Origin: Candidatus Latescibacterota bacterium
GTDB taxonomy: Bacteria > Latescibacterota > UBA2968 > GCA-2709665
Reading direction: 5' to 3'
Length of the DNA: 64,000 nucleotides
NCBI GenBank assembly: GCA_965203805.1
Contig: OZ241917.1
Location: forward strand, 5,152,001-5,216,000
Of this stretch, positions 35,058-58,963 are shown piece after piece. A program made the translations under genes and the position numbers. How positions within the stretch are numbered: the first letter of the stretch is position 1; each line of letters opens with the position of its first letter. Under the pieces are notes generated by a model, which worked only from the letters and a program-made list of their open reading frames with translations, had not been told where the DNA came from and ran no database searches.

Positions 35058-35086
35058 TTGACAAAAAAAGCGAAATAATATATCTT
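35058..35086 (+). promoter_or_regulatory. Putative sigma70 promoter of the IS630 transposase
   Basis: TTGACA-17 nt-TATCTT inside the left IS end. Confidence 0.5.
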
Positions 35087-35135
35087 GTGCTCATAGGGAA
35101 TCGATCTCAGTTCAACTGTGGAGAGGAGACCGCCT

Positions 35136-38910: not shown

Positions 38911-40075
38911 CTAGTGTTTCGTCCCAGGAGTAACTTGCAAAAATAGTTCACTTGCCATAGATTCCCTATAGCGAAAGGAGGAATCTATGGCCAGGGGACG
39001 TCCGTTAGCGCCACTGAGTATTGGGGATGAGGTTCGTGCGCAACTGGAAACCATTTCCCGTTCAAGAAGCATGTCGCACAGTCTTGTGTGCCGGGCGAAG
39101 ATCGTTCTGATGAGTGATCAAGGGCTGTCGAATCAGCAGATCGGACGACAGCTTGGTCTGTCGGGAGCCACAGTCGGGAAGTGGCGCCGTCGGTTTTTAG
39201 AACAAGGTCTGATGGGGCTTTATGATGAATTGCGCCCCGGGGGGCCCCGCTCGATCAGCGATGAGCGCATCGCCTCGCTGATTCATGCAACGCTCAAAGA
39301 CAAGCCGTCGGGAGCCACCCACTGGACCTGCCGCTCTCTGGCAGCCCAGACGCAACTGTCCAAGTCCACGGTTCAGCGCGTGTGGAAAGCGTTTGGTCTA
39401 CAGCCGCACCGGCAAAAACACTTCAAGCTGTCCAATGATCCGTTCTTTGTCGAGAAGGTACGTGACATTGTCGGACTGTATCTGAACCCTCCCGACAACG
39501 CGATGGTATTATGCGTTGACGAAAAGAGTCAGATCCAGGCATTGGAGCGAACGCAGCCGATATTGCCTTTGGGGTTGGGCTATGTGGAAGGGGTCACCCA
39601 CAATTATATCCGGCACGGCACCACGACCTTGTTCGCCGCGCTGGAGGTCGCTTCCGGCAAGGTGCTGGCCCAATGCAAACCCCGACATCGACACCAGGAA
39701 TTTTTACAATTCCTCAAATATATCGACCAAAACGTCCCGAAGGACCTTGACATTCATCTCGTCGTCGACAACTACGCCACGCACAAGCACGAAAAAATCA
39801 AACGCTGGATCGCAGCCAGGCCCCGATACCACGTTCACTATACACCGACCTATGCGTCCTGGCTCAACCAGGTCGAGATCTGGTTCGGCATCATTACCCA
39901 GAAAGCCATCCGACGCGGGACCTTCAAAAAGGTGAAAGACCTCATCGCCAACATTCAGGATTTCACCAACCATTATAACGCCAACTCACGACCGTTCGTC
40001 TGGACCGCCACCGCAGAATCGATCCTTGACAAGATCACCAGACTTTTTGAACTAATTCATGGGACAAGACACTAG
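38911..40075 (+). mobile_element. IS630-family insertion sequence (type B, copy 1)
   Basis: Ends CTAGTGTTTCGTCCCAGG and CATGGGACAAGACACTAG; CTAG target. Confidence 0.95.
38987..40075 (+). CDS. IS630-family transposase
   Basis: CVDEKSQIQAL, VVDNYATHK, SWLNQVEIWF; stop TAG lies in the terminal CTAG. Confidence 0.95.
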   Translation: MARGRPLAPLSIGDEVRAQLETISRSRSMSHSLVCRAKIVLMSDQGLSNQQIGRQLGLSGATVGKWRRRFLEQGLMGLYDELRPGGPRSISDERIASLIHATLKDKPSGATHWTCRSLAAQTQLSKSTVQRVWKAFGLQPHRQKHFKLSNDPFFVEKVRDIVGLYLNPPDNAMVLCVDEKSQIQALERTQPILPLGLGYVEGVTHNYIRHGTTTLFAALEVASGKVLAQCKPRHRHQEFLQFLKYIDQNVPKDLDIHLVVDNYATHKHEKIKRWIAARPRYHVHYTPTYASWLNQVEIWFGIITQKAIRRGTFKKVKDLIANIQDFTNHYNANSRPFVWTATAESILDKITRLFELIHGTRH

Positions 40076-42480: not shown

Positions 42481-43533
42481 ATGAATGACTCTACCAAGGA
42501 TGACCAGAAAGACGGTACAAATCTGAACGAGCAAGAATTGCAGGCCTTGGAGACGATCTTGAGGCGTACCGTTGCCTTCGAACAATATCGAAGTTTCGCT
42601 CAAAAACTTGAGCGTATTTCGCAAACCAAGAAGTCCAGTAAGAACCAGCGACGCTTGTCCGACCTCGAAGCCGAAGCGAAAGTGTGGCTCGATACTGTTA
42701 AATCCGCCGAAGCAGCCGGAGTCTTACACCCGAGCTATCGGTTTTTACTTACGTTGTACCCGATTGAACGTGTTCACGATGAACGTTGGGTCTGCGGCTG
42801 GTACGAGTCCGACCTTTGCGACATCAAGGCGGGGCTAGACGCCATACGTGAGATAAAGGGCCTTGGTGATGACGAGGACTGCACCATAGGGGAGAGGCCG
42901 GAGGATTGGGAGGAATTGGAACAGCAATACTCAGAAGTCTTAGACAGAAAGTTTGAAGAGGCGCTTCGGGAATTCGGTCTACACGAAATCGCTGATCTAT
43001 ACCACACGGACCGAGACGCATTCGACGCGCAACGTGAGCAAGGGCGTCGGCTCGCACTTGGGGAAATTTCCGATACGGAACAGATCGATGCCGCCGAGAA
43101 ACTGCTCGAAATTGAGGCCGAAGAATGTGCCAAAGCGGGAGCATATTACGCTGCAACGGTCATGATCGGGTCCGCATTGGAGGCTGCTCTCTTATTTGCC
43201 TGCCTGAAGCGCCTTGACGAAGCATTATCTGCCCGGAATCGATTGCCGAAATCTGAGCGACCCGATCGAGAGAATCCGAAGCGCTGGCGATTCGTGGAAC
43301 TGGCACGCATTGCAAATGAGGCGGGATGGCTACCGGATTTTGTAGTAGGGGATCGTAGGGTGTGCTCTCGATCGCTCATGGAAACTTTGCGGAGGCTGCG
43401 GAACCTGGCGCATCCGTCCCGTCACCTGACCGACGCGATAAATCGCGACATAAAAAGTGAGTATGCAAATGCGCGAGCCGCGTACAATCTGCTGAAGCGG
43501 CATTTGGCTGAACCTGGCGGCGATGCTCCGTAA
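42481..43533 (+). CDS. Hypothetical protein with C-terminal HEPN-like domain
   Basis: AYYAATVMIGSALEAALL helix followed by LRRLRNLAHP (R-x3/4-H HEPN-like motif); defence-island context. Confidence 0.55.
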   Translation: MNDSTKDDQKDGTNLNEQELQALETILRRTVAFEQYRSFAQKLERISQTKKSSKNQRRLSDLEAEAKVWLDTVKSAEAAGVLHPSYRFLLTLYPIERVHDERWVCGWYESDLCDIKAGLDAIREIKGLGDDEDCTIGERPEDWEELEQQYSEVLDRKFEEALREFGLHEIADLYHTDRDAFDAQREQGRRLALGEISDTEQIDAAEKLLEIEAEECAKAGAYYAATVMIGSALEAALLFACLKRLDEALSARNRLPKSERPDRENPKRWRFVELARIANEAGWLPDFVVGDRRVCSRSLMETLRRLRNLAHPSRHLTDAINRDIKSEYANARAAYNLLKRHLAEPGGDAP

Positions 43534-44154
43534 CTGTTAGAGTTATCAAGCGACTGATTTATTACACAACGCAGTCTCCGATCTCCCCTCAAAGTTGTGT
43601 GATGGGATGGATGTTTTTCGTTTTTCTCTTGTATCGTTGGTCGTGAAAACCTACCACGCGTATAAGTTAATTTTTTTTGTGGAAAAATAATGAGCCAAGG
43701 TCAAATTTGTAAACTTTGTGGGTGTGTCAGTAAACTTCAAAACTCTCATATATTGCCAGAGTTTCTATATAAATACTGTTATGATCCGATGCACCGGGCG
43801 ATCAAATTTAATACTCAGGAAATATCACGAATCATCGTACAAAAGGGAATTCGCGAACCTCTGTTATGTGTGAAGTGTGAGCGACATTTGAGCAAGATTG
43901 AGGGACGTTTTAAAACTGATTGGTATGATCGGGGTCGGTTGCCGGTACAATTTACGAAAGAATATTGGAGATTAGAAGGGTTTGATTATACTATGTTTAA
44001 GTTGTTTCATTTAAGCGTTCTTTGGCGTTGTTCGGTATCTAAAAACAAAGCATTCGCTACTGTTAGTTTAGGGCCTCACGAGCGACGCATCGCTCAACTG
44101 ATTCTCAGTGAAAATGCTGGCGAAGAACATGAGTATTCGATTATTGGCCAGCTT

Positions 44155-45319
44155 CTAGTGTTTCGTCCCAGGAATAACTTGCAAAAATAGTTCACTTGTC
44201 ATAGATTCCCTATAGCGAAAGGAGGAATCTATGGCCAGGGGACGTCCGTTAGCGCCACTGAGTATTGGGGATGAGGTTCGTGCGCAACTGGAAACCATTT
44301 CCCGTTCAAGAAGCATGTCGCACAGTCTTGTGTGCCGGGCGAAGATCGTTCTGATGAGTGATCAAGGGCTGTCGAATCAGCAGATCGGACGACAGCTTGG
44401 TCTGTCGGGAGCCACAGTCGGGAAGTGGCGCCGTCGGTTTTTAGAACAAGGTCTGATGGGGCTTTATGATGAATTGCGCCCCGGGGGGCCCCGCTCGATC
44501 AGCGATGAGCGCATCGCCTCGCTGATTCATGCAACGCTCAAAGACAAGCCGTCGGGAGCCACCCACTGGACCTGCCGCTCTCTGGCAGCCCAGACGCAAC
44601 TGTCCAAGTCCACGGTTCAGCGCGTGTGGAAAGCGTTTGGTCTACAGCCGCACCGGCAAAAACACTTCAAGCTGTCCAATGATCCGTTCTTTGTCGAGAA
44701 GGTACGTGACATTGTCGGACTGTATCTGAACCCTCCCGACAACGCGATGGTATTATGCGTTGACGAAAAGAGTCAGATCCAGGCATTGGAGCGAACGCAG
44801 CCGATATTGCCTTTGGGGTTGGGCTATGTGGAAGGGGTCACCCACAATTATATCCGGCACGGCACCACGACCTTGTTCGCCGCGCTGGAGGTCGCTTCCG
44901 GCAAGGTGCTGGCCCAATGCAAACCCCGACATCGACACCAGGAATTTTTACAATTCCTCAAATATATCGACCAAAACGTCCCGAAGGACCTTGACATTCA
45001 TCTCGTCGTCGACAACTACGCCACGCACAAGCACGAAAAAATCAAACGCTGGATCGCAGCCAGGCCCCGATACCACGTTCACTATACACCGACCTATGCG
45101 TCCTGGCTCAACCAGGTCGAGATCTGGTTCGGCATCATTACCCAGAAAGCCATCCGACGCGGGACCTTCAAAAAGGTGAAAGACCTCATCGCCAACATTC
45201 AGGATTTCACCAACCATTATAACGCCAACTCACGACCGTTCGTCTGGACCGCCACCGCAGAATCGATCCTTGACAAGATCACCAGACTTTTTGAACTAAT
45301 TCATGGGACAAGACACTAG
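44155..45319 (+). mobile_element. IS630-family insertion sequence (type B, copy 2)
   Basis: Same ends as copy 1; identical transposase protein; two visible substitutions in the left non-coding end. Confidence 0.95.
44231..45319 (+). CDS. IS630-family transposase
   Basis: Protein identical to 38987..40075. Confidence 0.95.
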   Translation: MARGRPLAPLSIGDEVRAQLETISRSRSMSHSLVCRAKIVLMSDQGLSNQQIGRQLGLSGATVGKWRRRFLEQGLMGLYDELRPGGPRSISDERIASLIHATLKDKPSGATHWTCRSLAAQTQLSKSTVQRVWKAFGLQPHRQKHFKLSNDPFFVEKVRDIVGLYLNPPDNAMVLCVDEKSQIQALERTQPILPLGLGYVEGVTHNYIRHGTTTLFAALEVASGKVLAQCKPRHRHQEFLQFLKYIDQNVPKDLDIHLVVDNYATHKHEKIKRWIAARPRYHVHYTPTYASWLNQVEIWFGIITQKAIRRGTFKKVKDLIANIQDFTNHYNANSRPFVWTATAESILDKITRLFELIHGTRH

Positions 45320-45819
45320 TCCACAATGATGCTATTGTTCACAGTCTTGTATCTCCGGCGTTTAGGCTTAGATTAGACGGTTTGCATGTATATCTATTGG
45401 CTTACGGAGGCTGTGAGTGGTTCCTCCATGTTTCACGACATAATAAGACCGAAGTTAAAGAATTAGGGTTTGGAAAAGACGGAAGTCTAATTCTTATACG
45501 ACAGTCGTTCTTAGAATCAATTACTGCAAGGCTTATGGATGTAGAATTGCGGACAAAAGCAGGTCAGGATTTCGTGCAGGCGTATAAGAAACTAAGGAAG
45601 AAGTATGAGTGTCTCGAATCACAATAGTTGAGTTTTAAATACTGATGATATTATCGCAGAACTGCAAATGGACTACATCGGTCTTGCGGCGAGAATAATC
45701 GACGTCCCTTTGTCCGGTGCAGTTACAAGTATGGCTTCTGACGGACTACTACTTGTAGAAGATTCAGTTACCGGAACTTAGTGCCAAACAATCCGCCACA
45801 TATCGCGGCCGAGAGACAG

Positions 45820-46020
45820 ATGAACATCGCGACCAGTTTTCCGGACGGTTGGGACGAGAAACGTGTCCGCCGGCTCTTGGACCATTATGAATCACAGACC
45901 GAGGACGAGGCAGTGGCGGAAGACGATGGGGTACTGGAAGACAAAACACAAACGCTGATGGCAATTCCCAATGCGTTGGTTCCGGCCGTGAAGGCGCTTC
46001 TTTCGCGACACGCCAGATGA
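45820..46020 (+). CDS. Small acidic hypothetical protein (possible orphan antitoxin-like)
   Basis: FPDGWDEKRVRRLLDHYESQTEDEAVAED...IPNALVPAVKALL; ATG at 45820. Confidence 0.5.
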   Translation: MNIATSFPDGWDEKRVRRLLDHYESQTEDEAVAEDDGVLEDKTQTLMAIPNALVPAVKALLSRHAR

Positions 46021-46750
46021 ACCCTTGGCTTGCTCGCGACCCTGGCGTATCCCACCCATCAACTCCCCGCACCATCCGACAACCGCTCTTTGTATCTGAT
46101 TAAATCCTTGCGAGTTATGGCCTCCGGCGGCACCAATTGGTATTGTCTCTCCGAGACGATTCGGATGTCGTCTCCATCCGTCTCGAATTCCAGCAGGGCA
46201 ATCACATTCTCACGCAAGATTTGTGCGCCTATGGGTCGGCAAATCAGGTCCGGCAATTTGTCGGCACAAAGCGCGATGTCCTGCTCGATCTGAATTCTGT
46301 TCAGTCTATCGCTGCCGCCCTTTGCCTGGACGGGTATCACATAGTGCGAGCCGCTCTTGTCGACACCCACGTAGATTTCGTCGGTCTCGACCTGACCCAT
46401 ATTTGGCACTGTCGTTCGGAGATGGTTCTGTAACGAATAGCACGCGATGCCAAGGAAGATGTCAATCAGGCGATTGTATCGAACCCGGGCCAAAACCGCC
46501 TGTTCATCATTGAACGCATATTTTGCGATGATTCCCGGAGTAGAGTCCGGCACCTTTGTCACCGAAAGATTCGGATTGGGCGTGAGCGGTATGTCGCTTA
46601 CCAATACAAACCTGTATTTGCCAGTTCCGGCAGGCCGAATAATCCATGTTTCGCCATCGGGTGCCTTGTCAAGAATACTCCTTGGAAGCGTCCTCCTGTA
46701 GCGAAACGTGTAGATCAAGTCACCCAGATTCTTCGGCAAGTCAACGTTGA

Positions 46751-48569
46751 GTCCACTCCGAAAAGTCGCATTTACTTATGCTGGTGAAAGTACTAAATTC
46801 GAAGTGTGAAAAGTCAGCAAGGATGAAGTATTGAGAATTACAATTGTAGAGAGCGTGGGAGAGGACAGATGTATAAGCCGAGTGCGTCGTGCAGTCAACC
46901 GGATCTGTTTTCGAATTTCGAGTCGCATTTCACACAGCGGAAGCAGGCGCAGTTGAATGATCCGAAGTCGTGGCATAATCTGTTTTACCAGCACATCACG
47001 TCAGAGATCGACGAGGATGTGTTTTCCGTGTTGTTTGATCCCGACATAGGCCGTCCCAATGCCCCGATTCGTCAGTTGGCGGCGATGATGGTCTTGAAGG
47101 AGGGCTTCGGGTGGAGCGATGCACAACTGTTCGAGCAATGTCGGTTCAATATCCTGGCGATGCGGGCATTGGGGTTGATGAATCTGTCTGATGAGGCGCC
47201 TGTGGAGTCGACGTATTATCTGTTCAAACAGTCCTTGTATGCGTATCAACTGAAAACCGGTCGGGATCTGGTTGGCGAGACCTTTAGCAGCTTAACGAAG
47301 ACGCAGGCCGACGCCTTTGGTGTGCTGGGTCAGCAAATCCGAATGGACAGTAAGTTAATCGGCTCGAACATTGCGCTATGTTGTCGGTTGCAGTTGGTGG
47401 TGGGTTGTTTACAACGGTTCTGGGGATCGTTGGACGAGGCCCGGAAGCGGCGATTATCAGGAAAACACCGGCAGGTTCTGGACGGAATGCTCAAGGTGAA
47501 GCCCCATCAGGTTGTCTACCGTCTCACCCGTGCTGAAAAAGGTGAGAAGCTACAGGAATACGGTGTGTTATTGAGCAGGCTTCAAGCGATCTATACCGAG
47601 AAAGACAGCGATCACTATGGTGTGATGGCGCGTGTTTTTGGAGACCAGTATTCGGTTTTATCCTCCTCCAAACAGGTGCTTCCCAAGCCGCCTGATGAGA
47701 TCTCCGCATCCTCCTTGCAGTCCCCCGATGACGAAGATGCGGCCTTTCGTAAGAAAGGGGAAGCGAAGGTGAAAGGATACAGTGTGAACCTCACCGAGAC
47801 CTGCGGTGAGGAGGGCCTCAATTTGATCACGGACATTGACGTCAAATCCGCGACAGCGCCCGACAACGCGTTTGTGCAAGCGGCCGTAGGGCGCACACAG
47901 CACGTGGTAGGGCAGGTTCGAGACGTGTCGATGGATGGGGCCTATAATGATCAATCCAACGCCGAGTACGCAAACGAACACGACAAGCAATTCTATTACA
48001 GTGGCCTGCAAGGAACCCCAGGGCGTTTCATTTATCGACGAACAAGAGAAGGCGTCGAAGTCATGGATCGAAATACCCAAGCCGTGCAGCTTGCCCAAGA
48101 ATACAAACCGGGGAAATACAAACTCATCATGGATGGCAAACCCCGATACTTTAAAGAACAGGCCATCGACAACTACATCAAACGCAAACAGAGTGAAGCC
48201 CTGCCTGAACACATCAGAAACCGACGCAATAACGTCGAAGCCAGCCTCTTCCAGTTGAGCTATTACACCCGAAACGGCAAAACTCGCTATCGTGGATTGA
48301 TGCCACATCAGCTGTGGGCGCACTGTCGTGGCTTATGGGTCAATCTCGTTCGGATCCAGAATTACCTCACCTCACCCACGATGCTCCCCGCATAAGATGC
48401 GACTTTTTTATGCATATCCTTGCCCCAAAACCACGCGAGCAACCTCGTAAACCGCCTCTGTGTTGATGGGCCGCAACCCGATGCACTTTCACCACGCAAC
48501 GCGACCTCTCAATACACAACACTGACACCTACACACGAAATCTTCCTGAACCCCCTTCTCGGAGGGGAC
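46751..48569 (+). mobile_element. DDE insertion sequence (IS1182/IS5/IS4-like, family uncertain)
   Basis: IRs GTCCACTCCGAAAAG and CTTCTCGGAGGGGAC (13/15); flanking direct repeat TCAACGTTGA at 46741-46750 and 48570-48579. Confidence 0.88.
46869..48395 (+). CDS. DDE transposase
   Basis: GRPNAP...GWSDAQL N-terminus, RMDSKLI, MDGAY, RNNVEAS, KTRYRG. Confidence 0.85.
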   Translation: MYKPSASCSQPDLFSNFESHFTQRKQAQLNDPKSWHNLFYQHITSEIDEDVFSVLFDPDIGRPNAPIRQLAAMMVLKEGFGWSDAQLFEQCRFNILAMRALGLMNLSDEAPVESTYYLFKQSLYAYQLKTGRDLVGETFSSLTKTQADAFGVLGQQIRMDSKLIGSNIALCCRLQLVVGCLQRFWGSLDEARKRRLSGKHRQVLDGMLKVKPHQVVYRLTRAEKGEKLQEYGVLLSRLQAIYTEKDSDHYGVMARVFGDQYSVLSSSKQVLPKPPDEISASSLQSPDDEDAAFRKKGEAKVKGYSVNLTETCGEEGLNLITDIDVKSATAPDNAFVQAAVGRTQHVVGQVRDVSMDGAYNDQSNAEYANEHDKQFYYSGLQGTPGRFIYRRTREGVEVMDRNTQAVQLAQEYKPGKYKLIMDGKPRYFKEQAIDNYIKRKQSEALPEHIRNRRNNVEASLFQLSYYTRNGKTRYRGLMPHQLWAHCRGLWVNLVRIQNYLTSPTMLPA

Positions 48570-48717
48570 TCAACGTTGAGTTCAGAGGCAAACGTAACGA
48601 TGTCCTGCCTAACAAAATTAACTTCACGTTGGCCCGATTGAAACCCGGCTTGGAAAATCGCTTCTATGATGGCGGAATAGCGATCAGTCGTGGAAATGTC
48701 GTGCTCCTCTCCAATAG

Positions 48718-50022
48718 TCAACGGCCGGGCCATTCGAGTGTCACGACTTCCTCCCTGAGCTGTTCCCCGGTTACCGTGGAAAGTCGGGTTCGAAAGAGAT
48801 CGATGCCGGTAACAGTATAGCCCAGGGATTTGGCGACACCGGCCAACAGTTCGCCGGTTCGGATCATGACCCGTAGATAGGATGCCTGATCACCCACCAC
48901 ATAGGCGAGCTTGGCACCGGGTCTGAGTGCCGGCCGCAATGACGCGAGATGCTTCGCCATCCCCCCGAAGTACAGGAGTGTGACACGCGAATACTGCCGC
49001 TCGAAACCTGATGTCTTGCCCATTGCAATGCGTCGATTCTCAATCTCATTCGCAAGTCTGCGTATTTCTATATTGTCCGCGATTTCGCTGTCGTCGGTAT
49101 CAGCTTTGTACACACCGCGAGTGTTCGACCTGACCAGGTTCTGCTTCAGCATCCTCAGTTCGTGTCGGTTCTTTATGAGGCCAAGGACGACGGATTCCAG
49201 GCGTGTCGTTCTCGTGTAGTCCTTCTCGTTGGGATACGGCGGAGAAGTAATCACAACGTCGACGGAGCCCGGTTCAAGGATGCCTTCCACGCTGCGAGCG
49301 TCGGCATTAATGATGTGACTGGCCGTGCTTGCCAGACCAACGTAACGGTGAACGTCCCTGACAGCAGTCCGTATACATTCAAGCCAGGCGTCCACGACCG
49401 GTGCATCGTATTTGATCTTCCCGACCCCGACCTCCGGCCCGAACTTCAGATTGCTGATACGGTGTACCAGTGCATTGGCAAGGCAAAGGCGACCGTAACG
49501 CTGTAACTGACGATTACCGTGCCGGTCGATAGCGTCCAAGAGTACGAGCGCCTTGTGGAGAGGGCGGGGGCTGATCGAATCCTTTAAAAGTATATGCGAT
49601 CGCTCAGCAGGCAGCTCCTTAAGCGTGGCCGTCGGATTTCCATTTGCAGCGAACAGTGGAAGATCCTTCCATTCGTCCAATCCCTGTTCTTTCAGCGTCT
49701 TCTTCGTGGACTGCGCAACCTTTTCCGCGTAGTCGAGCAACGCTTCGTGGCATACACCCCAGTCGACCTTCACCGAACTTGCGAAATACGCCATCGGATT
49801 CGGCTCGATCCCGATGCTGCCAATGCCGAGTTTCTTGCACTCAACGGTCGTGGTCCCGGTCCCGCAGAATGGATCCAGCACGGTGTGAGAAGGTCGCACG
49901 TCGAACCGGTCAAGATACTTGCGGACCAGATGAGGAGGGTACGACAGGACAAACCGGTACCAGTCATGAACTTCCCGGTCTTCCGGCCGCAGCTTGTTCA
50001 ATTCCTTCATCTTCGTAGCCAT
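48718..50022 (-). CDS. DNA amino-methyltransferase (probably N4-cytosine), intact
   Basis: VLDPFCGTGTT (motif I) precedes VITSPPY (motif IV). Confidence 0.88.
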   Translation of the reverse strand: MATKMKELNKLRPEDREVHDWYRFVLSYPPHLVRKYLDRFDVRPSHTVLDPFCGTGTTTVECKKLGIGSIGIEPNPMAYFASSVKVDWGVCHEALLDYAEKVAQSTKKTLKEQGLDEWKDLPLFAANGNPTATLKELPAERSHILLKDSISPRPLHKALVLLDAIDRHGNRQLQRYGRLCLANALVHRISNLKFGPEVGVGKIKYDAPVVDAWLECIRTAVRDVHRYVGLASTASHIINADARSVEGILEPGSVDVVITSPPYPNEKDYTRTTRLESVVLGLIKNRHELRMLKQNLVRSNTRGVYKADTDDSEIADNIEIRRLANEIENRRIAMGKTSGFERQYSRVTLLYFGGMAKHLASLRPALRPGAKLAYVVGDQASYLRVMIRTGELLAGVAKSLGYTVTGIDLFRTRLSTVTGEQLREEVVTLEWPGR

Positions 50023-50476
50023 TCGATCGATCTGTGTGAGATATAACTTATTATATTTAAATAGAATATTGGAATTAACGGCCGAGGAATCGGATTCGAA
50101 ACCGGGCGTGAATTCCGGTGTCTGCCGGTAATATAGTCAGTAACACAATGGATTGCAAGATTCCGAAGGGTTTCTAGAGGATCCGGATATGTGGCCTTGT
50201 GTTGTGTTGCTGCAACGTCGGCATCAGGGGGCAGCGCTGATTTTAGATTTCCCTTGACTCGAAGCGGATCTTGGATTTCCTTCTTTGTCTGGCGAATGAA
50301 TCTGGTTGCTGCGGTTTGCGGGTGGTGTTGGGGTTTGTGAATTCGCGAAATTGAGTCGTCCCGTTCACTCGACCTCCGGGCGCGAGGAATGAAGAACAGA
50401 GCCGGATGTTCTTCATCATTCGCGCGCGCTCACCTCGGGGTCCAGGAGACGGGTTTTTTGTCCACATTGGGATGGT

Positions 50477-52111
50477 ATGCGGTCCATATCAGAGTTTCTG
50501 AGCGGCAAGACGCTGTTTGTGACGGGCGCAACGGGGTTTCTGGCGAAGGGATTCGTGGAGAAGATCCTGTTTTCGTCCCCTGAAGTGGCGCGGATCTATC
50601 TCCTGATCCGCCCCCGGTTGCGTTCCAACGGAAGACTGGTTTCTGAAACGGAACGGCTGGAGACCGAAGTTCTTCAGTCTCGCGCGTTCGGGAGGCTTCG
50701 AGAGAAGTGGGGCGCGGCGTTTCCGTCGGTGATGGCCGAGAAGATCCAGCCGGTTGCCGGCGATCTGACCGAAGACGGACTGGGGATTGCCTCCGGCCAG
50801 CACGAGCGTCTTGTTGACGAAGTCGATTTCGTCGTCAACTTTGCGGGTACCGTGGTCTTCGACGAGCCCATCGACAGCGCGCTCGAGCAGAACACGATGG
50901 GCGCCGCGCGGGTCGTGGCTTTCGCGAAGGCCTGCCGGCAAGCCGCGCTCGTACACGTGTCGACGGCGTACGTGAGCGGACAGCGGACCGGGCGGATTCA
51001 GGAAACCCCTTTTCCCCAGGACCGGAGCGTAACGGACCTCATCAACGGAAGCGCGGCCGGATTCGACCTTCAGGGCGAGATTGACGCCATTCGGTCCTTT
51101 GCGAAGAAGGTGAGGGAGGCGTCCAATGAGCCCGAATTGGAGGCGGCATTCCTGAAGCAGCTCCGGCGCAAGGACCGCGGCAAACGCGTGACCGACTACC
51201 GGAAGGCGCACCAGGTCGAGGCCCTCCGCCAGCGCTGGATCCGGAAGCAACTGGTGGATGAAGGGATGCGGCGGGCCAGGCGCTTCGGATGGAACGACAG
51301 CTATACGCTCACGAAGGCGATGGGTGAGCAGTTGATCGTAAAGTCGCACGGCGATCTGCCAATGGCCATCGTCCGGCCGGCGATCGTGGAAAGCAGCCTC
51401 GAGGACCCGGAGCCGGGATGGGTCGAAGACCTGAAAGTCGCCGATCCGCTGATCGTCCACTACGGCAAGGGCCGGCTGTCGAATTTTCCGATCGATCCCG
51501 GAATCGTCCTGGACATTGTACCCGTGGATGTGCTGAACAACGCCGTCGCGGCGGTACTCCCGCAGGTACACGGGTCGCATGAGATGAAGGTCTACCACGT
51601 GGCGTCGGGCTCGCAGAATCCGGTGCGTGCGAGTGAAGTGGTGGAACACGTTTACGGGTACTTCAAGACCTCGCCCTTACGCGACCGGAAAGGGCAGCCC
51701 ATCGAAGTCCGGCCCTGGCAGTTCATCGGCAGACGGCGGTTCTCATGGATTGTCCTTCTGAAATACAAGCTTCCGCTGCGCTTCCTGAAGGCGGCCGTAG
51801 ACTATTTGCCAACCCGGTGGGTTTCCCGTTACAGGCGCCGGGTGATGGCTTTGGAAGCCATACTGGTCAGGCTCGAGTCCCTGCTCGACATTTATTGCGG
51901 GTACACCCATCTGGACTGTGAATTCGAGACGGAGAATACGCGCCGGTTGTTCCAGGGGCTGAATCCTGAGGACCAGAGGGTGTTCAATTTCGACGTGACG
52001 CGCATCAACTGGCGGGAATACTTCCAGGAGATCCACATTCCGGGATTGAAACACCACGTGTTGAAAGAAGGGGACGGGGCGGTTTCCACGCTGACCGCCG
52101 GGGCCGATTGA
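50477..52111 (+). CDS. Fatty acyl-CoA reductase (alcohol-forming FAR; NAD_binding_4 plus Sterile domain)
   Basis: FVTGATGFLAK, HVSTAYV, YTLTKAMGEQL, IVRPAIVES, EPGWVE, DIVPVD, C-terminal FNFDVTRINWREYF..IHIPGL typical of plant/animal-type FARs. Confidence 0.88.
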   Translation: MRSISEFLSGKTLFVTGATGFLAKGFVEKILFSSPEVARIYLLIRPRLRSNGRLVSETERLETEVLQSRAFGRLREKWGAAFPSVMAEKIQPVAGDLTEDGLGIASGQHERLVDEVDFVVNFAGTVVFDEPIDSALEQNTMGAARVVAFAKACRQAALVHVSTAYVSGQRTGRIQETPFPQDRSVTDLINGSAAGFDLQGEIDAIRSFAKKVREASNEPELEAAFLKQLRRKDRGKRVTDYRKAHQVEALRQRWIRKQLVDEGMRRARRFGWNDSYTLTKAMGEQLIVKSHGDLPMAIVRPAIVESSLEDPEPGWVEDLKVADPLIVHYGKGRLSNFPIDPGIVLDIVPVDVLNNAVAAVLPQVHGSHEMKVYHVASGSQNPVRASEVVEHVYGYFKTSPLRDRKGQPIEVRPWQFIGRRRFSWIVLLKYKLPLRFLKAAVDYLPTRWVSRYRRRVMALEAILVRLESLLDIYCGYTHLDCEFETENTRRLFQGLNPEDQRVFNFDVTRINWREYFQEIHIPGLKHHVLKEGDGAVSTLTAGAD

Positions 52112-52132
52112 CCGGCTTGCGGGTTTTTACGA

Positions 52133-54073
52133 ATGAATCGAAACATTAAAGCGCCCGTGCACAGAATGTTGTTGCAGGATCCTGCCCGTCTGGTGGCCGC
52201 TTACGATCAGGCGGCCTCGGAACTGATCGTCGCCGTTCAGCCCGAAGGCTATTTCAAGGGGTGGACGGCCGAGGATCTGGCGTGGCCGGCCGGCGGCGCC
52301 GACGACGTCGGCCTCGAGGGTCTGCGCAAACGGGCGCGGATTGTGGACGCGATCTGCCGGGGTGTACCCGGTCTGCGGGACAACCGGCTGAAGGAGGCGC
52401 ACGACCATTTCGTCGAACTGACGCCGGCTTACCACGAAGGGAACCGGATCTACCTTCGGCTTCGGGATGAATTCATTGAAGCGGGCGCCGGAACAGGCCC
52501 GGACTTTCTGAAACTGTATCAGTCCCTCTACGTGGAGGCGCTCGCAAAAGGAGATGATTTCTCGCCCGACCCGGCAGAAACCGCACTGGCGCGAGCCCGG
52601 ATCTCCCGGGTACCGCTGTCGCACGCCAGGGCGGTTGCGGAAGCGCTGCCCAGCGTGACCACGGACGACGATCCGCGCTGGAGTGTGGAATACGCCTGCA
52701 CGGTGAGTGGCGAGACCTGGAGCGGAACCCTCCGGGAACTCCTGGAAGACGTGGCGCAGCGGACCCTGCACTACATCGCGGCCGGAGAGCTTCTCGCCAC
52801 GCGCTACAACACCTACAATAACCTGGGCTGGTTCGGCAGTTCGGTGTGGAAGGTAGTCGCGGAAGCCGATGTGCGCCTGTATCGGATGGAGGGATCGGAT
52901 CCCGCGCGCTCGGAGATGCTGAAGGCCGACGTAGACCTGGCACGCGGCATGCTCGTGGAGTTCCTGGCGGCGCACCGGGAGGATCCCGCCCGGCTCAGGC
53001 CGGAGAACTACTGGTACGGGCAGCCGTACAGCTATCTGACGCGGGACATGATCGACCTGAGCGTCCGGATCGCGGACGGCTTGAATTCGGCGGCAAGGGA
53101 ACTGGACGGGGTGACCGAAATGGCACTCCCGCCCCTGCTGGCGGGCGCCCGCACGGGCCGGTTTCTGGACTACGCCCACGTGGGCGTGACCGAGGAACAG
53201 ACGTCATTCCAGAGGAAAATCAGGATGTTGCGCTGGGCGAGACGGTGCTGGCGGGTGGGGAAACGCAGGCGCCGGATCGCGGAGGAGGACCTCACGCCGT
53301 CCCAGAGGCACGAACGCGCGTGGGAGGTCTGGCTGGATTGGTCCCGGGACACAATGAAAGCATTCGGCATCCGGCTGGACGTCACAATCGCCCCGATGTT
53401 CCGGACACTCGTCCGGGAAATGGACCTTGCGGCCGGCGGCCGGCGGATCCTGTTCCTGCCCTCGCACCAGAGCATGCTCGAGCATTTCGTGGTGTTTTCC
53501 GTATTCAACGATCCGGTCTTTCTGGATGCGATGGGTTGGGATCGGTCCCGGCCTGTCGTACAACTCGCCCGAACGGGCCTGGCGAAGTCAACGTCGGTGA
53601 AGATCGGGTCCCGAGAAATCAGTATCTTCGGGATGTCTCCGGACAGGTTCGACCGGATGTTCGAGACCGTCGACGGTTTCATCACCCGGGACAGCGTGGA
53701 CATCTCTTCGCATACGATTCCGCGAATCCTGCAGGAGATGGAGCGGCGTCCGGGTGTGATTTATCCGATGGGCACGACGGCTTCCTTCGACGTGCAGTTG
53801 TTCCCGCTGCAACACGCGCTTTTCGCGAAACTGCCCCAGGACGTCGTGATGGTCCCGATCGTGTTTCGGGGCAGCCATGCGCTATGGCCCAAGTGTCCGG
53901 CGCGCAATCTGAATATCAATCCCGGCGTGATCGAGGCGGTGATCCTGCCCCCGATGCCGGGTGAGACCACGCTGCTGCCGCGCCGCCGGTCCCTGCGCAT
54001 CCAGCTGGAGGCCGCCAATCTGCTTCAGGCGGTGCATATTTCGAATCTGCTGAATCCGGAACCCTCGCGATGA
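52133..54073 (+). CDS. Unknown N-terminal domain plus PlsC/LPLAT-like acyltransferase domain (candidate DHAP acyltransferase)
   Basis: LFLPSHQSMLE (HxxxxD variant), IYPMGT (FPEGT variant), MVPIVFRGSHALWPK; sits between FAR and AGPS. Confidence 0.6.
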   Translation: MNRNIKAPVHRMLLQDPARLVAAYDQAASELIVAVQPEGYFKGWTAEDLAWPAGGADDVGLEGLRKRARIVDAICRGVPGLRDNRLKEAHDHFVELTPAYHEGNRIYLRLRDEFIEAGAGTGPDFLKLYQSLYVEALAKGDDFSPDPAETALARARISRVPLSHARAVAEALPSVTTDDDPRWSVEYACTVSGETWSGTLRELLEDVAQRTLHYIAAGELLATRYNTYNNLGWFGSSVWKVVAEADVRLYRMEGSDPARSEMLKADVDLARGMLVEFLAAHREDPARLRPENYWYGQPYSYLTRDMIDLSVRIADGLNSAARELDGVTEMALPPLLAGARTGRFLDYAHVGVTEEQTSFQRKIRMLRWARRCWRVGKRRRRIAEEDLTPSQRHERAWEVWLDWSRDTMKAFGIRLDVTIAPMFRTLVREMDLAAGGRRILFLPSHQSMLEHFVVFSVFNDPVFLDAMGWDRSRPVVQLARTGLAKSTSVKIGSREISIFGMSPDRFDRMFETVDGFITRDSVDISSHTIPRILQEMERRPGVIYPMGTTASFDVQLFPLQHALFAKLPQDVVMVPIVFRGSHALWPKCPARNLNINPGVIEAVILPPMPGETTLLPRRRSLRIQLEAANLLQAVHISNLLNPEPSR

Positions 54074-54113
54074 GAAACCGGATCCGGCCGATTGTTGTCA
54101 TCGGGAGTACGTA

Positions 54114-55961
54114 ATGCCTGAGTGGGGAATCGCAGCGGTTGTCGCCGCGACAATTCTGCTGATCGCGCTTCTGCCCAGACGGAGGGGCGCCGGAAGCGAA
54201 CCGGACGAATTCTTCGATCATTCCGAAGCGGAACGGTTTCCCCACAAGTGGGGATACACGGACACGCGGTTCGAGTTTGTGGACGATCGCACGCTGAAGG
54301 TGACCGGCAACAGGTACCCCATCTCGGGATACCGCATGCCGTTTCTGATCGACTTTGTGGAGGACGTGCTGGGCATTGCGATCCGGAAGGAAGACGCGTT
54401 TGCCGAGCGCGACGAAATTGAAGCGACGGAACCGAACGTGGACGCGGCGTTCGGGAACGCGGTGAAGGAGCGGTTCGGAGACGGGCAGGTTTCCTTGGAT
54501 CCGCAAGCCAGGCTGGTGCACAGCCACGGACAGCTGAGCGTGGAGGAAGTGTATCGCGTGATGTATGGCGATTCGCTACCCAGGCTGGTCGACCTGGTGT
54601 TCTATCCCGAAGAGGAGGCCGACGTCAAGGCCATGATCGACCTCGCCAACGAGCATAACGTGTGCCTGGTGCCCTATGGCGGCGGGACGAACGTGAGCGG
54701 TGCGCTGGCGTGTCCGGCCGACGAGCGGCGCACGATCGTTTCGGTGGATATGCGCCGGATGGACCGGGTGATGTGGATTGACGAGGCCAATCTTCAGGCC
54801 GGCGTCGAGGCGGGGATTTCGGGCAAGGCGATGGAGAGAGCGCTTGGAGAGCGGGGGTACACCTCGGGACACGATCCCGATAGCGTGGAATTGTCCACCA
54901 TGGGCGGCTGGATCTCGACCAATGCGAGCGGGATGAAGAAGAACCGGTACGGCAATATCGAAGACATCGTGCTCGAAGCGACGCTGGTGACGCCTACCGG
55001 CGAAATCGCAACCCGCCAGGTCACGCCCAGAAACTCCACGGGCGTCCAGCCGCGGGGTCTGCTGTTCGGAAGCGAAGGCAATTTCGGTATTATCACCACG
55101 GCGGTGATCAAGATTCATCCGATCCCCGAGGCGCGCAAGTACGGGGCGCTCGTCTTCCCTGCTTTCGAGAAGGGCGTTTCTTATCTGAAGGCGCTCCGGC
55201 AGACCGGCATGCTGCCCGCGAGCATCCGCCTGGTCAACAACAACGAATTCCGGTTCGGACAGGCCCTGAAAGGGGAACCGACGTTCCTGAAAGGCGTCAA
55301 GGAAAAGGTTCAGAAATTCGTCCTGTTGAAGGTGATGGGTTTCGATCCGATGAAGATGGGCGCGTGTACCATCGTGATGGAGGGCACGCATGACGAAGTG
55401 CGCCAGCAGGAACGCACGATCTTCAGCCTGGCGAAGAAATACGGCGCCAAGAGCGCGGGCGCCAGCAACGGCAAGCGAGGCTATTCGCTGACGTTCGGCA
55501 TCGCCTACATTCGTGATTTCCTGAATCAATACGGCATCCTGGGCGAAACCTTCGAGACGTCTGTTCCCTGGGACCGGATCCACCAGGTTTGCGATGCGGT
55601 ATCGAAGGAACTGGTGACGCAGGCCACGATGCACAACGTGCCGGGGAAACCCTATCTCTCGTACCGGGTGACCCAGACCTACCATACGGGCGTCTGTATC
55701 TATTTCACCATGGGCATTTACGGCAAGGGCCTGGAAGCGCCGGGCCGGACGTTTCACGTGATCGAACACCGGCTTCGGCAGGTGATCCTGGACAACGGAG
55801 GGTCTTTGTCGCACCACCACGGCGTTGGAAAGGTAAGAAAGGACTTCCTGCCGCAGATTCAGAGCGATAACAGTATCCAGGTCATGCGTCAGGCCAAGAA
55901 CGCGATGGATCCGAACAACATCTTCGGGATCAGAAATGGTGTTTTCGGGGAGATTGAGTGA
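54114..55961 (+). CDS. agps: Alkyl-dihydroxyacetonephosphate synthase (AGPS/ADAS), FAD-linked, with N-terminal membrane anchor
   Basis: WGYTDT, PYGGGTNV, GHDPDS.E.STMGGWISTNASGMKKNRYGNIED, ASIRL, RVTQTY, GGSLSHHHGVGK. Confidence 0.88.
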   Translation: MPEWGIAAVVAATILLIALLPRRRGAGSEPDEFFDHSEAERFPHKWGYTDTRFEFVDDRTLKVTGNRYPISGYRMPFLIDFVEDVLGIAIRKEDAFAERDEIEATEPNVDAAFGNAVKERFGDGQVSLDPQARLVHSHGQLSVEEVYRVMYGDSLPRLVDLVFYPEEEADVKAMIDLANEHNVCLVPYGGGTNVSGALACPADERRTIVSVDMRRMDRVMWIDEANLQAGVEAGISGKAMERALGERGYTSGHDPDSVELSTMGGWISTNASGMKKNRYGNIEDIVLEATLVTPTGEIATRQVTPRNSTGVQPRGLLFGSEGNFGIITTAVIKIHPIPEARKYGALVFPAFEKGVSYLKALRQTGMLPASIRLVNNNEFRFGQALKGEPTFLKGVKEKVQKFVLLKVMGFDPMKMGACTIVMEGTHDEVRQQERTIFSLAKKYGAKSAGASNGKRGYSLTFGIAYIRDFLNQYGILGETFETSVPWDRIHQVCDAVSKELVTQATMHNVPGKPYLSYRVTQTYHTGVCIYFTMGIYGKGLEAPGRTFHVIEHRLRQVILDNGGSLSHHHGVGKVRKDFLPQIQSDNSIQVMRQAKNAMDPNNIFGIRNGVFGEIE

Positions 55962-55980
55962 CGGCTGATGGGCCTCTCGA

Positions 55981-56010
55981 GGTGGGGGCGCCCGGCCGGT
56001 CGCCCCGACA
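55981..56010. repeat. REP-like hairpin between AGPS and the SDR
   Basis: GGGGCGCCCGGCCGGTCGCCCC imperfect palindrome; similar hairpins near 26527, 27126 and 29856. Confidence 0.45.
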
Positions 56011-56036
56011 ATGCCGAATCGCAGGGAAGGCAAATC

Positions 56037-56843
56037 ATGTTCAACGGTAAAGTGGTCGCGATAACCGGGGCGTCGTCGGGTCTGGGCGCAACGCTGGCTC
56101 TGGCGTTCGCGGAGGAAGGGGCGGACCTGGCCCTTTTCGCCCTGGACGACGGCGTCCACGAAACGGCGGCTGACTGCAGGGAGCGCGGCAGCCGCGTGAC
56201 CACGGAAACGGGTGACGTCGGAAATCCGGCGGACTGCGAGGCCTGGATCGACGCCGCGGTATCCGGACTGGGAGGCGTGGACTACCTGGTTGCCTGCGCG
56301 GGAATCAGCATGTGGGCGCGGTTCGACGAGGTGGAGGACCTGACGATTTTTCGCAGGTTGATGGAAACGAACTATCTGGGCATCGTGCATTGCGTATACT
56401 ACGCATTGCCCCACTTAAAGGCGCGCGACGGGATGGTGGTGGCGATTTCCTCCATCCAGGGCAAGATCGGCGTGCCCCTGCATACGGGTTACGTGGCGTC
56501 CAAGCACGCCGTTCAGGGCTTCTTCGAGTCGCTGCGGACGGAACTTCTGGACACGGGCGTGGACGTGCTGACGGTACTGCCCCACTGGCTGCGCGGGACC
56601 AATCTGCGCAAGGCGGCTTTCGGAAAGGATGGCGGGGCTCTCGGCGGGTCGAGCCGCAAGCACAGCAGGGAGTCGATATCCCTGGACGACGCAAGCACGG
56701 CCATCATCGAAGCGATGAAGAAGAGGAAGCGGGAACTGATCATCCCGTTCAAGCTGAGATTTCTGCCCTGGCTGCACCTGATCAATCCGAAGATCGTCGA
56801 ATATCTGGTCACGCGCGGGGTGGCGAAACAGGAAAAAGGGTAG
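56037..56843 (+). CDS. SDR oxidoreductase, DHRS7B-like (candidate acyl/alkyl-DHAP reductase)
   Basis: ITGASSGLG, METNYLG, VAISSIQGK, YVASKHAVQGFFESLRTEL; start MFNGKVV 56037. Confidence 0.75.
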   Translation: MFNGKVVAITGASSGLGATLALAFAEEGADLALFALDDGVHETAADCRERGSRVTTETGDVGNPADCEAWIDAAVSGLGGVDYLVACAGISMWARFDEVEDLTIFRRLMETNYLGIVHCVYYALPHLKARDGMVVAISSIQGKIGVPLHTGYVASKHAVQGFFESLRTELLDTGVDVLTVLPHWLRGTNLRKAAFGKDGGALGGSSRKHSRESISLDDASTAIIEAMKKRKRELIIPFKLRFLPWLHLINPKIVEYLVTRGVAKQEKG

Positions 56844-56882: not shown

Positions 56883-57572
56883 TCAGGAAAAGACCCCGTC
56901 CACATCCAGGTGTTCTTCAATCAGTTCGGGCATGCGTCCGAGATGCCCGGCATCCACGTCCACGCCCGGATCGAATGGCACGATGCCCAGTGACGCGGCC
57001 CCGGTCAGGCGCGTGACCACCTCCGGACTGCTGCGGGCGGCCCTCGGGTCGCCGGGTCCGGTCGTATTGTAGACGACGCCCCGAATTTCCAGGTTGCGCG
57101 TCTTCGCGGCCTCGAGCGTGAGCATCGTGTGGTTGATGGCGCCCAGCGCGGCACGCGCGACCAACAGCAGTGGCAGGTCAAGACGGTCGGCGAGGTCCGC
57201 GACCAGGAAGTCATCACGGATCGGAACCAGCAGGCCGCCCACACCCTCGACCAGTACGGTTTCATGCAGGCGGATCAGGCGGTTAAACGCATCCACGATG
57301 GGTTCCAGCGGAACCCGGCGGCCCTCCAGTTCGGCGGCCACGTTCGGCGACAACGGCGCGGCGAGCCGGACGGGATTGACGAGTTCGAGCCCATCTGAGA
57401 CGCCCGCCGCCTTCACCAGGAATCGCGCATCCGCCGCGCCGCCCGACGACACGGGCTTGAACACACCCACGTCCACGCCGCGTCCCCGAAGAACGGCGGC
57501 AATTCCGGCGGTCACGGCGGTTTTGCCCGCGCCGGTGTCCGTGGCGGTAACGAAGACTCCCCTGGATTGCAT
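56883..57572 (-). CDS. bioD: Dethiobiotin synthase
   Basis: FVTATDTGAGKT, FKPVSSG, VEGVGGLLVP, LGAINHTML; start MQSRG 57572. Confidence 0.93.
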   Translation of the reverse strand: MQSRGVFVTATDTGAGKTAVTAGIAAVLRGRGVDVGVFKPVSSGGAADARFLVKAAGVSDGLELVNPVRLAAPLSPNVAAELEGRRVPLEPIVDAFNRLIRLHETVLVEGVGGLLVPIRDDFLVADLADRLDLPLLLVARAALGAINHTMLTLEAAKTRNLEIRGVVYNTTGPGDPRAARSSPEVVTRLTGAASLGIVPFDPGVDVDAGHLGRMPELIEEHLDVDGVFS

Positions 57573-57592
57573 GGTCGTATTGCCCCCGGAAG

Positions 57593-58963
57593 TCAGGCCG
57601 CGTTCGTCACGGCGCGGATGGACTCGCAGGCGATATCCAGCAGCTCTTCGAGATCGCGGTCGGAAATGGCCAGGGGCGGCATGAGGACAATCGTGTCTCC
57701 CAGCGGGCGGATGAGCAGACCCCGTTTCCGGGCCTCGCCGCAGACGCGGTTGCCGACTCTCTCCGACGTCGGATACGGCCGTCCGCCAGCGCTGTCGGCA
57801 ACCAGTTCGATGCCGGCGATGAAACCGCACCGGCGAACGTCCCCCACATGCGGGAGGGTCCTGAAGCGCTTGAGTCCGCGAGCGAGACGCTCGATCCTGG
57901 GTTGCAGCGACGCCAGTACGTTGCGGCTCTCGAATCGTTCGATGGCTGCCAGCGCCGCGGCGCAGCCGAGCGGATTGCCTGTATACGTGTGGCCGTGGAA
58001 GAACGTCTTGCCTTCGCTGTCTTCGCCCAGAAACGCATCGAAGATCCCGCCGGTGGTCAGCGTGGCGGCCACAGGCAGGTATCCGCCCGTGAGTCCCTTG
58101 CCCAGGCAGAGAATGTCGGGCGCGACCCCTTCTTTCTCGCAGGCGAACATGGCGCCGGTGCGACCGAAGCCGGTGGCGATCTCGTCGGCGATGAGCAGCA
58201 CGTCGTGCGCCCTGCAGAGGTCGGCGACTCCCTTCAGATAGCCCTCGGGATGGACCAGCATCCCACCGGCGCCCTGGATCAGCGGCTCAATGATGAAGGC
58301 GGCGATGCGGTGGGCGTTTTGTTTCAGGATTTCTTCGACCGCCCTCAAACAGCCCTGGTTGCACGCGCTTGCGCGGGCGCAGAACGCGCAGCGATACGGA
58401 TGGGGCGACGGCGCATTCAGCGACGGAAAGAGGAGCGGGCCGTACGCCTTGTGGAAAGTGTCGATATTCCCAACGCTCATGGCGCCGACGGTGTCGCCGT
58501 GATAGCTCCGCTCGAGGCTCAGAAAGCTGGTCTTGCCGGGTCGCGGGTCCGGTCTCTGCCGCCAGTACTGGAAGGCGATCTTGAGCGCGATCTCAACGGC
58601 GCAGGCGCCCGTGTCCGAATAGAACACGTGGTCCAGACCATCCGGTGTGATCGCCACCAGTTTTTCGGCCAGCCGGATCGCGGGTACGTTGGAAAGGCCC
58701 AGCAGCGTGCTGTGCGCTACCTGGTCCAGTTGTTCGCGGATGGCGGTGTCGATTTCCCCGGCGCGGTGGCCGTGTACGTTGCACCACATCGAGGAGTATC
58801 CGTCCAGATACCGGTTACCGTCGATGTCCTCCAGATAGACGCCGTCCGCACGAGCGATGACGATGGGGTCTTCGCTCGCATACGTGCGCATCTGGGTGAA
58901 CGGGTGCCACACGAGGCGCCGGTCGAGGTCTTTCAGGCGGGCCTTGTCGTCCGGGGACATCAT
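57593..58963 (-). CDS. bioA: Adenosylmethionine-8-amino-7-oxononanoate aminotransferase
   Basis: [49 protein letters not shown]; adjacent to bioD. Confidence 0.93.

Follow-up and report, generated by a model that had tools for sequence, protein, structure and literature searches.

We describe a four-gene operon in a 64,000-nucleotide stretch (hereafter, the window; positions count from its first letter) of a Candidatus Latescibacterota genome (GenBank assembly GCA_965203805.1, contig OZ241917.1, positions 5,152,001 to 5,216,000, forward strand). At 50477-56843 lie genes for a fatty acyl-CoA reductase (FAR), a divergent acyltransferase (AT) whose second half resembles the lysophospholipid acyltransferases (LPLATs), an alkyl-dihydroxyacetonephosphate synthase (AGPS), and a short-chain dehydrogenase/reductase (SDR); together they form a real, conserved operon, very likely for ether lipids, that may act on dihydroxyacetone phosphate (DHAP). 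A preliminary description, made from the letters of the window alone, had reported four tightly spaced co-directional genes here; the list of open reading frames (ORFs) bears this out, with four plus-strand ORFs at exactly the coordinates given below and gaps of 21, 40, and 6 nt between FAR and AT, AT and AGPS, and AGPS and SDR, respectively. The undivided AT ORF (52133-54073) encodes 646 aa. The features of the operon are as follows.

50477..52111, plus strand: FAR, alcohol-forming fatty acyl-CoA reductase (P0001), 544 aa, identified by Pfam, a solved-FAR match, and motifs
52133..53197, plus strand: AT (P0002), N-terminal helical domain, residues 1-355, from the structural model
53198..54073, plus strand: AT (P0002), LPLAT/PlsC-fold catalytic domain, residues 356-646, candidate DHAP (sn-1) acyltransferase
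54114..55961, plus strand: AGPS, alkyl-dihydroxyacetonephosphate synthase (P0003), 615 aa, with an N-terminal hydrophobic segment at residues 1-23
55968..56843, plus strand: classical SDR (P0004), 291 aa, candidate acyl/alkyl-DHAP reductase

Three of the four gene products were recognized directly by sequence, as the preliminary description had named them. FAR carries the Pfam domains NAD_binding_4 (E value, 4.7e-63) and, at its C terminus, Sterile (9.7e-16), and it matches the solved FAR 7eoz (2.3e-89); residues T16-G17, T19-G20-F21, Y276, and K280, which belong to the GxxGxxG and YxxxK motifs, are invariant among 25 homologues. Its closest relatives among longer proteins are the FAR modules (42-51% identity) of ElbD-like proteins (FAR, AMP-binding, acyl carrier protein, and PF01553 domains; ~1400-1480 aa) and of AMP-binding, FAR, and HAD proteins (~1200 aa). 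The SDR carries adh_short (1.2e-42), scores 279.9 bits against NCBIfam PRK06181 (cut-off, 215), and shows the cofactor and catalytic motifs of classical SDRs (TGASSGLG and YVASK).

The third product combines FAD_binding_4 (7.4e-38) and FAD-oxidase_C (6.2e-36) and aligns with guinea-pig AGPS 4bby (4.7e-150; query residues 44-608 on chain residues 94-656) and with Dictyostelium AGPS 2uuu (1.3e-82), the next non-AGPS flavoenzyme or oxidase reaching only 2.5e-25. It has the oxidase core and the AGPS-specific N-terminal extension, aligned end to end with a solved AGPS, and its sequence leaves no reasonable doubt that it is an alkyl-DHAP synthase. The alignment to the guinea-pig enzyme retains SHHHGVGK (the HHH loop) and counterparts of R419, T568, and Y578; we take the HHH loop and Y578 to be catalytic features of that enzyme and R419 and T568 to be sites of disease mutations. 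Because residues 1-23 are strongly hydrophobic (Kyte-Doolittle mean, 2.05) and are followed by RRR, a membrane anchor at the N terminus is suggested. AGPS is single copy in the window’s genome, and its homologues at 63-70% identity are labeled Poribacteria, Marinimicrobia, and Gammaproteobacteria, several of them JGI named as alkyldihydroxyacetonephosphate synthase. In a metagenomic protein of 1060 aa (P0313), which may be a fusion or a gene-calling artifact, an AGPS (67% identical) shares the chain with aminotransferase-type domains (PF00155, PF01212, and PF01053).

AT gave zero matches in Pfam (even at an E value of ≤10), NCBIfam, and the PDB sequences, and a profile built from 33 AT sequences found no match in the PDB sequences. 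Against 1.84 billion protein representatives, a profile search returned 66 matches, all from its own family (about seven full length, the others fragments). PF01553 appeared at an E value of ≤1 in 14 of the 33 homologues (best, 1.3e-4), the window AT not among them; hhalign against ElbD-type AT domains gave a probability of 72.6%, with YPxGTT and VVxxP aligned to motifs III and IV, and 23 of the 30 neighbors found by a protein-language-model search fall in PF01553 clusters. One homologue is JGI named as a 1-acyl-sn-glycerol-3-phosphate acyltransferase (AGPAT).

An AlphaFold model of AT (mean predicted local distance difference test [pLDDT], 88.4; predicted template modeling score [pTM], 0.91) superposes residues 356-646 on Thermotoga maritima PlsC 5kym (Z, 16.1; root mean square deviation [rmsd], 3.5; 232/241 residues aligned), and a search independent of Foldseek agreed (Z, 15.4; rmsd, 2.9; 220 aligned). 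The best Foldseek matches were PlsC, plastid glycerol-3-phosphate acyltransferases (GPATs), and human GPAT1, the GPATs at Z ~9 (human GPAT1, 9.0-9.2). H445 is invariant in all 33 sequences, position 450 has D in 24 of them and E in the other nine, the window AT included, and R480, Y544, T548, R579, G580, and H582 are likewise invariant. Models and alignment together give a PlsC-like alpha/beta fold with HX4(D/E) at a helix start; the catalytic half, as modeled, has the LPLAT/PlsC fold and is no true orphan, and the LPLAT-like domain named earlier was right at the level of fold and motif. The N-terminal domain (residues 1-355) is all-helical with one hairpin, both in the full model and folded alone (pLDDT, 84.9), and holds many invariant residues; folded alone and compared with 48,161 chains, it found generic helical bundles only (best Z, 9.8).

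AT loci were collected by scanning one genome per species (164 loci), and synteny was read with tblastn in the best 79 of the 164. Every related record of these 79 is a metagenome-assembled genome (MAG), nearly all titled Latescibacterota and some with Gemmatimonadota or other labels; the closest are titled Candidatus Latescibacterota, in keeping with the non-myxobacterial lineage that had been proposed. The preliminary description had also suggested looking for the arrangement in related genomes, and it is there: FAR-AT-AGPS-SDR recurs in 39 of the 79 loci. Because order and strand are kept in these 39, the four-gene arrangement is not due to chance. FAR-AT-AGPS without SDR was seen in four loci (three end at a contig edge, and one has a divergent, 46%-identical AGPS), FAR-AT only in eight (three cut by a contig end), and AT by itself in 28. 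FAR lies immediately 5′ of AT in all 51 FAR-bearing loci, SDR comes next after AGPS in 39 of the 40 loci where no contig end cuts into AGPS, and five untruncated loci hold the FAR-AT pair without AGPS.

A phylum survey covered 168 species genomes of Latescibacterota (genomes numbered G, families numbered f1-f14). AGPS is present in 125, AT in 132, FAR in 131, and an SDR orthologue, which tracks AGPS, in 120. Both AGPS and AT are found in 123 genomes, AT without AGPS in 9, and AGPS without AT in 2 (each of these <80% complete). In family f4, AT lies megabases away from AGPS, both being retained, and FAR is mostly found within ElbD-like frames of ~1400 aa; AGPS and SDR are adjacent in all four f4 loci inspected, and their other neighbors are unrelated. 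The operon is two modules, FAR-AT and AGPS-SDR, joined in the window’s family and its sister families.

Some related loci have contents of their own. The neighbors of AT and AGPS in f4 (M81 peptidase, NfeD, SPFH, PPIase, TPR, Hsp70, and others) were considered for a link to lipids and set aside as lipid unrelated. In two AGPS-less loci (L099:3603-12717 and L098:8060-17085), a HAD hydrolase and a Zn-dependent dehydrogenase come after FAR-AT; L099 additionally has an AMP-binding acyl-CoA synthetase before FAR-AT and a Lar_N-domain protein downstream, an elb-like set with its own reductase. A divergent AGPS-like type, 45-47% identical to the window AGPS, occurs at L024:7959-9662 and in G038, G151, and G094; at L024, it comes straight after FAR-AT, with no SDR behind it.

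The lineage of the window lacks the genes with which bacteria are known to start phospholipid synthesis. The window’s genome, assembled as one contig of 5.87 Mb and 99.8% complete, holds one Pfam-detectable LPLAT, a 254-aa PlsC-like frame. No PlsY (control matched in 8 genomes), PlsX (control matched in 9 genomes), GpsA C-terminal domain (control matched in all 10 bacteria), or PlsB was found in it, PlsB also being absent from all 168 phylum genomes; a PF01210 search returned weak generic Rossmann matches only, and the PlsY and GpsA ORFs of two sister-lineage genomes had no tblastn match in the genome. CdsA is present, as is a glycerol kinase (GlpK; 675.8 bits; cut-off, 590). In a sister lineage (L096), plsY-gpsA lies between genes whose orthologues stand side by side at C1:840421-843421 of the window’s own genome, outside the window, where the loss looks, from the sequence, like a clean deletion rather than an assembly gap.

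Across the phylum, PlsY and GpsA each occur in 29 of the 168 genomes, both confined to families f5-f7, f9-f12, and f14, and PlsX is above the cut-off in 34 (the PlsY families and one f4 genome, there on a separate contig). Families f1-f4 and f8 comprise 133 genomes, 131 of them with AT, which elsewhere in the phylum is found only in G034 (f14). AT alone was found in 131 genomes, PlsY alone in 28, both in 1, and neither in 8, so that the two are mutually exclusive in 159/168; these counts are weighed down by relatedness, most of the signal being one ancestral event, and f8 with three of the five AT carriers outside the phylum set adds a few independent cases of AT without PlsY. In G034, G168, and G170, AT and PlsY coexist. 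Two of the eight genomes with neither gene are >90% complete (G031 and G022). G031 (f13; 96% complete) has no AT, PlsY, PlsX, or GpsA and carries a 1449-aa ElbD-like frame. None of the 133 genomes in the AT-bearing families has GpsA, and 68 of them have GlpK; because the other 65, many of which are single contigs, have neither, they are left without a known source of free glycerol-3-phosphate (G3P). Our literature search found no paper linking Latescibacteria to PlsY/GpsA loss and none describing an acyl-DHAP route in place of PlsY/GpsA in bacteria.

Taken together, the operon probably encodes the DHAP route to 1-O-alkyl-glycerol-3-phosphate, with AT as the acyl-DHAP-forming enzyme. FAR would reduce an acyl thioester to a fatty alcohol; AT, with its divergent LPLAT fold, would make 1-acyl-DHAP; AGPS, probably membrane anchored, would put the alcohol in place of the acyl group, yielding alkyl-DHAP; and SDR would reduce the keto group to give 1-alkyl-G3P, which the single PlsC-like enzyme of the genome and CdsA could then take into phospholipids. 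We infer the substrates, above all DHAP as the acceptor of AT and acyl/alkyl-DHAP for SDR; for AT, use of DHAP is read from the need of AGPS, the absence of GpsA, and the absence of GlpK in 65/133 genomes. AGPS requires acyl-DHAP, and because the genome has one Pfam-detectable LPLAT, the operon AT is the only other candidate for supplying it. The expected products are alkyl (plasmanyl) lipids rather than plasmalogens because no PEDS1/CarF was found. The preliminary description had all four steps of the DHAP route in one unit, which the enzyme types and the synteny support; that AT is a GNPAT relative and uses DHAP, or SDR a DHRS7B/PexRAP relative, would be conjecture.

Several observations weigh against this reading. 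AT shows no sequence match to any solved GPAT and no particular resemblance to GNPAT, GPAT, or PlsB, and its structure is nearer to PlsC, an sn-2 acyltransferase, than to the GPATs at Z ~9. The nearest solved proteins of SDR are clavulanate dehydrogenase (5.5e-26) and 11-beta-HSD1 (~1e-23). Nine genomes carry AT with no AGPS at an E value of ≤1e-60, making AT independent of AGPS, and the SDR orthologue is absent from these nine and from G038 (which has the divergent AGPS only); SDR is therefore no universal partner of AT. The PEDS1/CarF profile (PF10520) matched neither the window’s genome nor any control genome and is uninformative, leaving the absence weakly supported. A scan of the operon for promoters and terminators found sites in numbers no higher than in shuffles. 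In Myxococcus xanthus, loss of AGPS lowers ether lipids only slightly (PMC9131029), so that an operon with AGPS is not necessarily a main supplier of lipids.

The gene losses extend the DHAP-route interpretation. The preliminary description, whose reading of that route remains the safest one, overlooked that the lineage is without GpsA, PlsX, PlsY, and PlsB, and this alters the probable cellular meaning of AT: since those genes are gone, AT may start all membrane lipids. Under this wider proposal, to which we would give slightly less than an even chance, AT is the only sn-1 acyltransferase of the lineage and acylates DHAP, a reductase then gives lysophosphatidic acid (lyso-PA), and all ester and ether glycerolipids pass through acyl-DHAP. 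The reductase could be the operon SDR or, in AGPS-less relatives, the Zn-dependent dehydrogenase, and GpsA, PlsX/PlsY, and PlsB would be gone throughout the Latescibacterota class to which the window’s genome belongs. Entry by DHAP only has to contend with GlpK in half of the AT-lineage genomes, with an SDR orthologue that goes with AGPS rather than with AT, with the closest likeness of AT being to an sn-2 enzyme, and with the AGPS-less FAR-AT loci (L098 and L099) that carry a Zn-dependent dehydrogenase of their own.

An alternative is that AT is a new G3P (sn-1) acyltransferase that replaced PlsX/PlsY, with acyl-DHAP only a side activity and SDR serving only the ether branch. Dual-specificity GPATs form acyl-DHAP as a side activity, the exclusion of AT and PlsY (159/168 genomes; 1 with both, 8 with neither) suits such an enzyme as well, SDR tracks AGPS rather than AT, and the GlpK of the window’s genome (675.8 bits), like that of 68/133 genomes, can make G3P from glycerol. 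We nevertheless regard this as unlikely, at perhaps one chance in a handful, since GpsA is absent in 133/133 genomes and GlpK is also absent in 65 of them, and the Zn-dependent dehydrogenase beside FAR-AT in two AGPS-less loci fits an AT product that needs reduction.

A later or different role for AT, either sn-2 acylation of 1-alkyl-G3P (AGPAT) or esterification of fatty alcohol to wax esters, with an unrecognized enzyme giving acyl-DHAP, would account for PlsC, an AGPAT, being the best structural match, for the JGI name of one homologue, and for FAR-AT without AGPS in five untruncated loci, which fits acylation of the alcohol. In that case, both acyltransferases of the genome would be of the sn-2 type, every known kind of sn-1 acyltransferase would be missing, and CdsA would nonetheless be kept; mutual exclusion with PlsY is what is expected of an sn-1 enzyme. 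We consider this role improbable. Slightly less probable still is that the cluster remodels or salvages ether lipids and fatty alcohols of a host such as a sponge, or makes a minor signaling or storage lipid and no membrane lipids: the window was found in runs labeled sponge and marine metagenomes, sponges are rich in ether lipids (bioRxiv 10.64898/2026.06.23.733905, in the part available), and the AGPS route is minor in M. xanthus (PMC9131029, likewise), but the genes are kept in 120-132 of the 168 species genomes, relatives include lake-titled records (e.g., Baikal-deep MAGs), FAR is a biosynthetic enzyme, and a central role is more in keeping with the canonical lipid-start genes having been lost.

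As to habitat and expression, the window was found in 20 listed runs of 7 studies, labeled sponge and marine metagenomes or given as codes. Three metatranscriptome libraries from 2 studies yielded contigs that match parts of each of the four genes at 90-99% likeness, operon parts without such cover carrying no meaning; this is a weak hint that the operon is transcribed, DNA carry-over being possible. The Latescibacterota are not known to have a cultured member, and the ether-lipid function is a prediction from their genes.

The surroundings of the operon differ on its two sides. Convergent with it and directly after it is bioD, whose ORF has ~90 extra N-terminal residues ahead of the AAA_26 domain; the upstream start may be wrong. 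On the 5′ side is a low-GC stretch (GC, ~0.50 at 32-50 kb versus ~0.60-0.65 elsewhere in the window) with many restriction and transposase genes. These features are as follows.

32000-50100: low-GC island with defense and mobile genes
33009-34967, minus strand: GmrSD, in the low-GC island
46869-48395: IS1182-like transposase, in the low-GC island
48718-50022, minus strand: DNA-methylase-like gene, in the low-GC island
56883-57830, minus strand: bioD (dethiobiotin synthase), convergent, directly after the operon

The island carries three DDE_3 transposases. Two copies of an insertion sequence (38956-40075 and 44200-45319) are identical across 1120 nt (a 1089-nt transposase gene and 31 nt upstream), and a third (35118-36203) is divergent (148 identical residues of ~362). 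A Type ISP restriction-modification gene is apparently split into 37783-38946 and 40078-42336 around the transposase at 38987-40075. Within the operon, FAR ends in a TGA at 52109-52111, and AT has a separate ATG at 52133; stop and start (52109-52135) share a frame 7 codons apart, resembling a split fusion. A FAR-AT read-through or fusion product was considered and rejected: the frame relation varies among related loci, and we treat the shared frame as a coincidence.

Should the DHAP route be as widespread as its AGPS (125/168 genomes), sponges, sediments, and lakes would have in the Latescibacterota a candidate producer of non-isoprenoid alkyl glycerol ethers. Neither GNPAT- nor Pfam-based searches pick up AT, and surveys built on a GNPAT match (e.g., PMC13012113) probably under-count complete pathways, which bears on the claim that eukaryotes acquired the pathway from Myxococcota. 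If entry were by acyl-DHAP only, bacteria would have a third way of beginning phospholipid synthesis, an unrecognized solution for an essential membrane step, and this would explain why GNPAT-based surveys see no complete ether-lipid pathway in the phylum.

The preliminary description had called the operon an undescribed source of bacterial ether lipids, which does not survive a comparison with the literature, as far as the sources were available. In M. xanthus, an operon of MXAN_1676 (AGPS, ~42% identical to the human enzyme), MXAN_1675 (a FAR1-like and GNPAT-like fusion, FARAT), and MXAN_1674 (an NAD-dependent epimerase/dehydratase) has been described, and disruption of MXAN_1676 leaves ether lipids slightly lower (available parts of PMC9131029 and, for the operon, also of bioRxiv 10.1101/2025.10.10.681575). 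The accessible part of PMC13012113 gives a GTDB survey with eukaryotic queries, in which 73 genomes (61 Myxococcota and 12 from five other phyla) had the full set of four enzymes, PEDS1 being one of them. Matches to agps and to a “standalone elbD” in sponge Latescibacterota MAGs are reported in bioRxiv 10.64898/2026.06.23.733905, the part of which available to us describes neither the operon nor the acyltransferase, and the part of a Science Advances paper (PMC13159169) at hand mentions distant agps homologues in other bacteria. The AGPS-FAR kind of operon is already known; what this one adds is the divergent AT and the finding that it and the canonical lipid-start genes exclude each other.

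Compared by description only, the M. xanthus operon resembles that of the window in clustering a bacterial, animal-like AGPS with FAR, an acyltransferase, and an NAD(P)-dependent reductase, FAR preceding the acyltransferase; FAR directly before AT in the Latescibacterota repeats the domain order of the known FAR-GNPAT fusions (bioRxiv 10.1101/2025.10.10.681575). It differs in that no window gene joins FAR and acyltransferase in one protein, the two being separate genes in another gene order, and in that AT is not GNPAT-like by sequence and has a 355-aa helical domain without a specific fold match. Here, the reductase belongs to the classical SDRs, there to the extended ones; no CarF/PEDS1 was found in the window’s genome (by the uninformative PF10520 search), and the host lineage is without GpsA, PlsX, and PlsY.

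The animal peroxisomal pathway (FAR1, GNPAT, AGPS, and DHRS7B/PexRAP) has the same four activities that are proposed here, and the window’s operon, like the Holozoa, keeps FAR and the acyltransferase as two proteins (bioRxiv 10.1101/2025.10.10.681575). AGPS matches the guinea-pig enzyme at 4.7e-150, and FAR shares the C-terminal Sterile domain. The bacterial operon differs in its clustered genes, in an AT that is no recognizable GNPAT, and in a putative hydrophobic N-terminal anchor on AGPS where the animal enzyme has a targeting region. The elb cluster (Myxococcus, Acidobacteriota, and Poribacteria) is approached by FAR, 42-51% identical to the ElbD-like FAR module, and by AGPS-less relatives in which FAR-AT sits with a HAD hydrolase, a Zn-dependent dehydrogenase, a Lar_N protein, and, in one locus, an acyl-CoA synthetase; in contrast, the window’s genome has no multidomain ElbD and uses, by prediction, AGPS for the ether bond.

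With PlsC 5kym and the LPLAT superfamily (PF01553), AT shares the fold, HX4(D/E), an invariant Arg, and recognizable motifs III and IV, whereas it has ~10% identity, lies below Pfam detection, and carries the extra 355-aa N-terminal domain; its proposed acceptor is DHAP at sn-1, that of PlsC lyso-PA at sn-2. Finally, AT fills the same place in phylogenetic profiles as PlsX/PlsY and GpsA, lineages having one or the other, but it is an unrelated protein whose acceptor (DHAP, with reduction afterward) and acyl donor are probably different.

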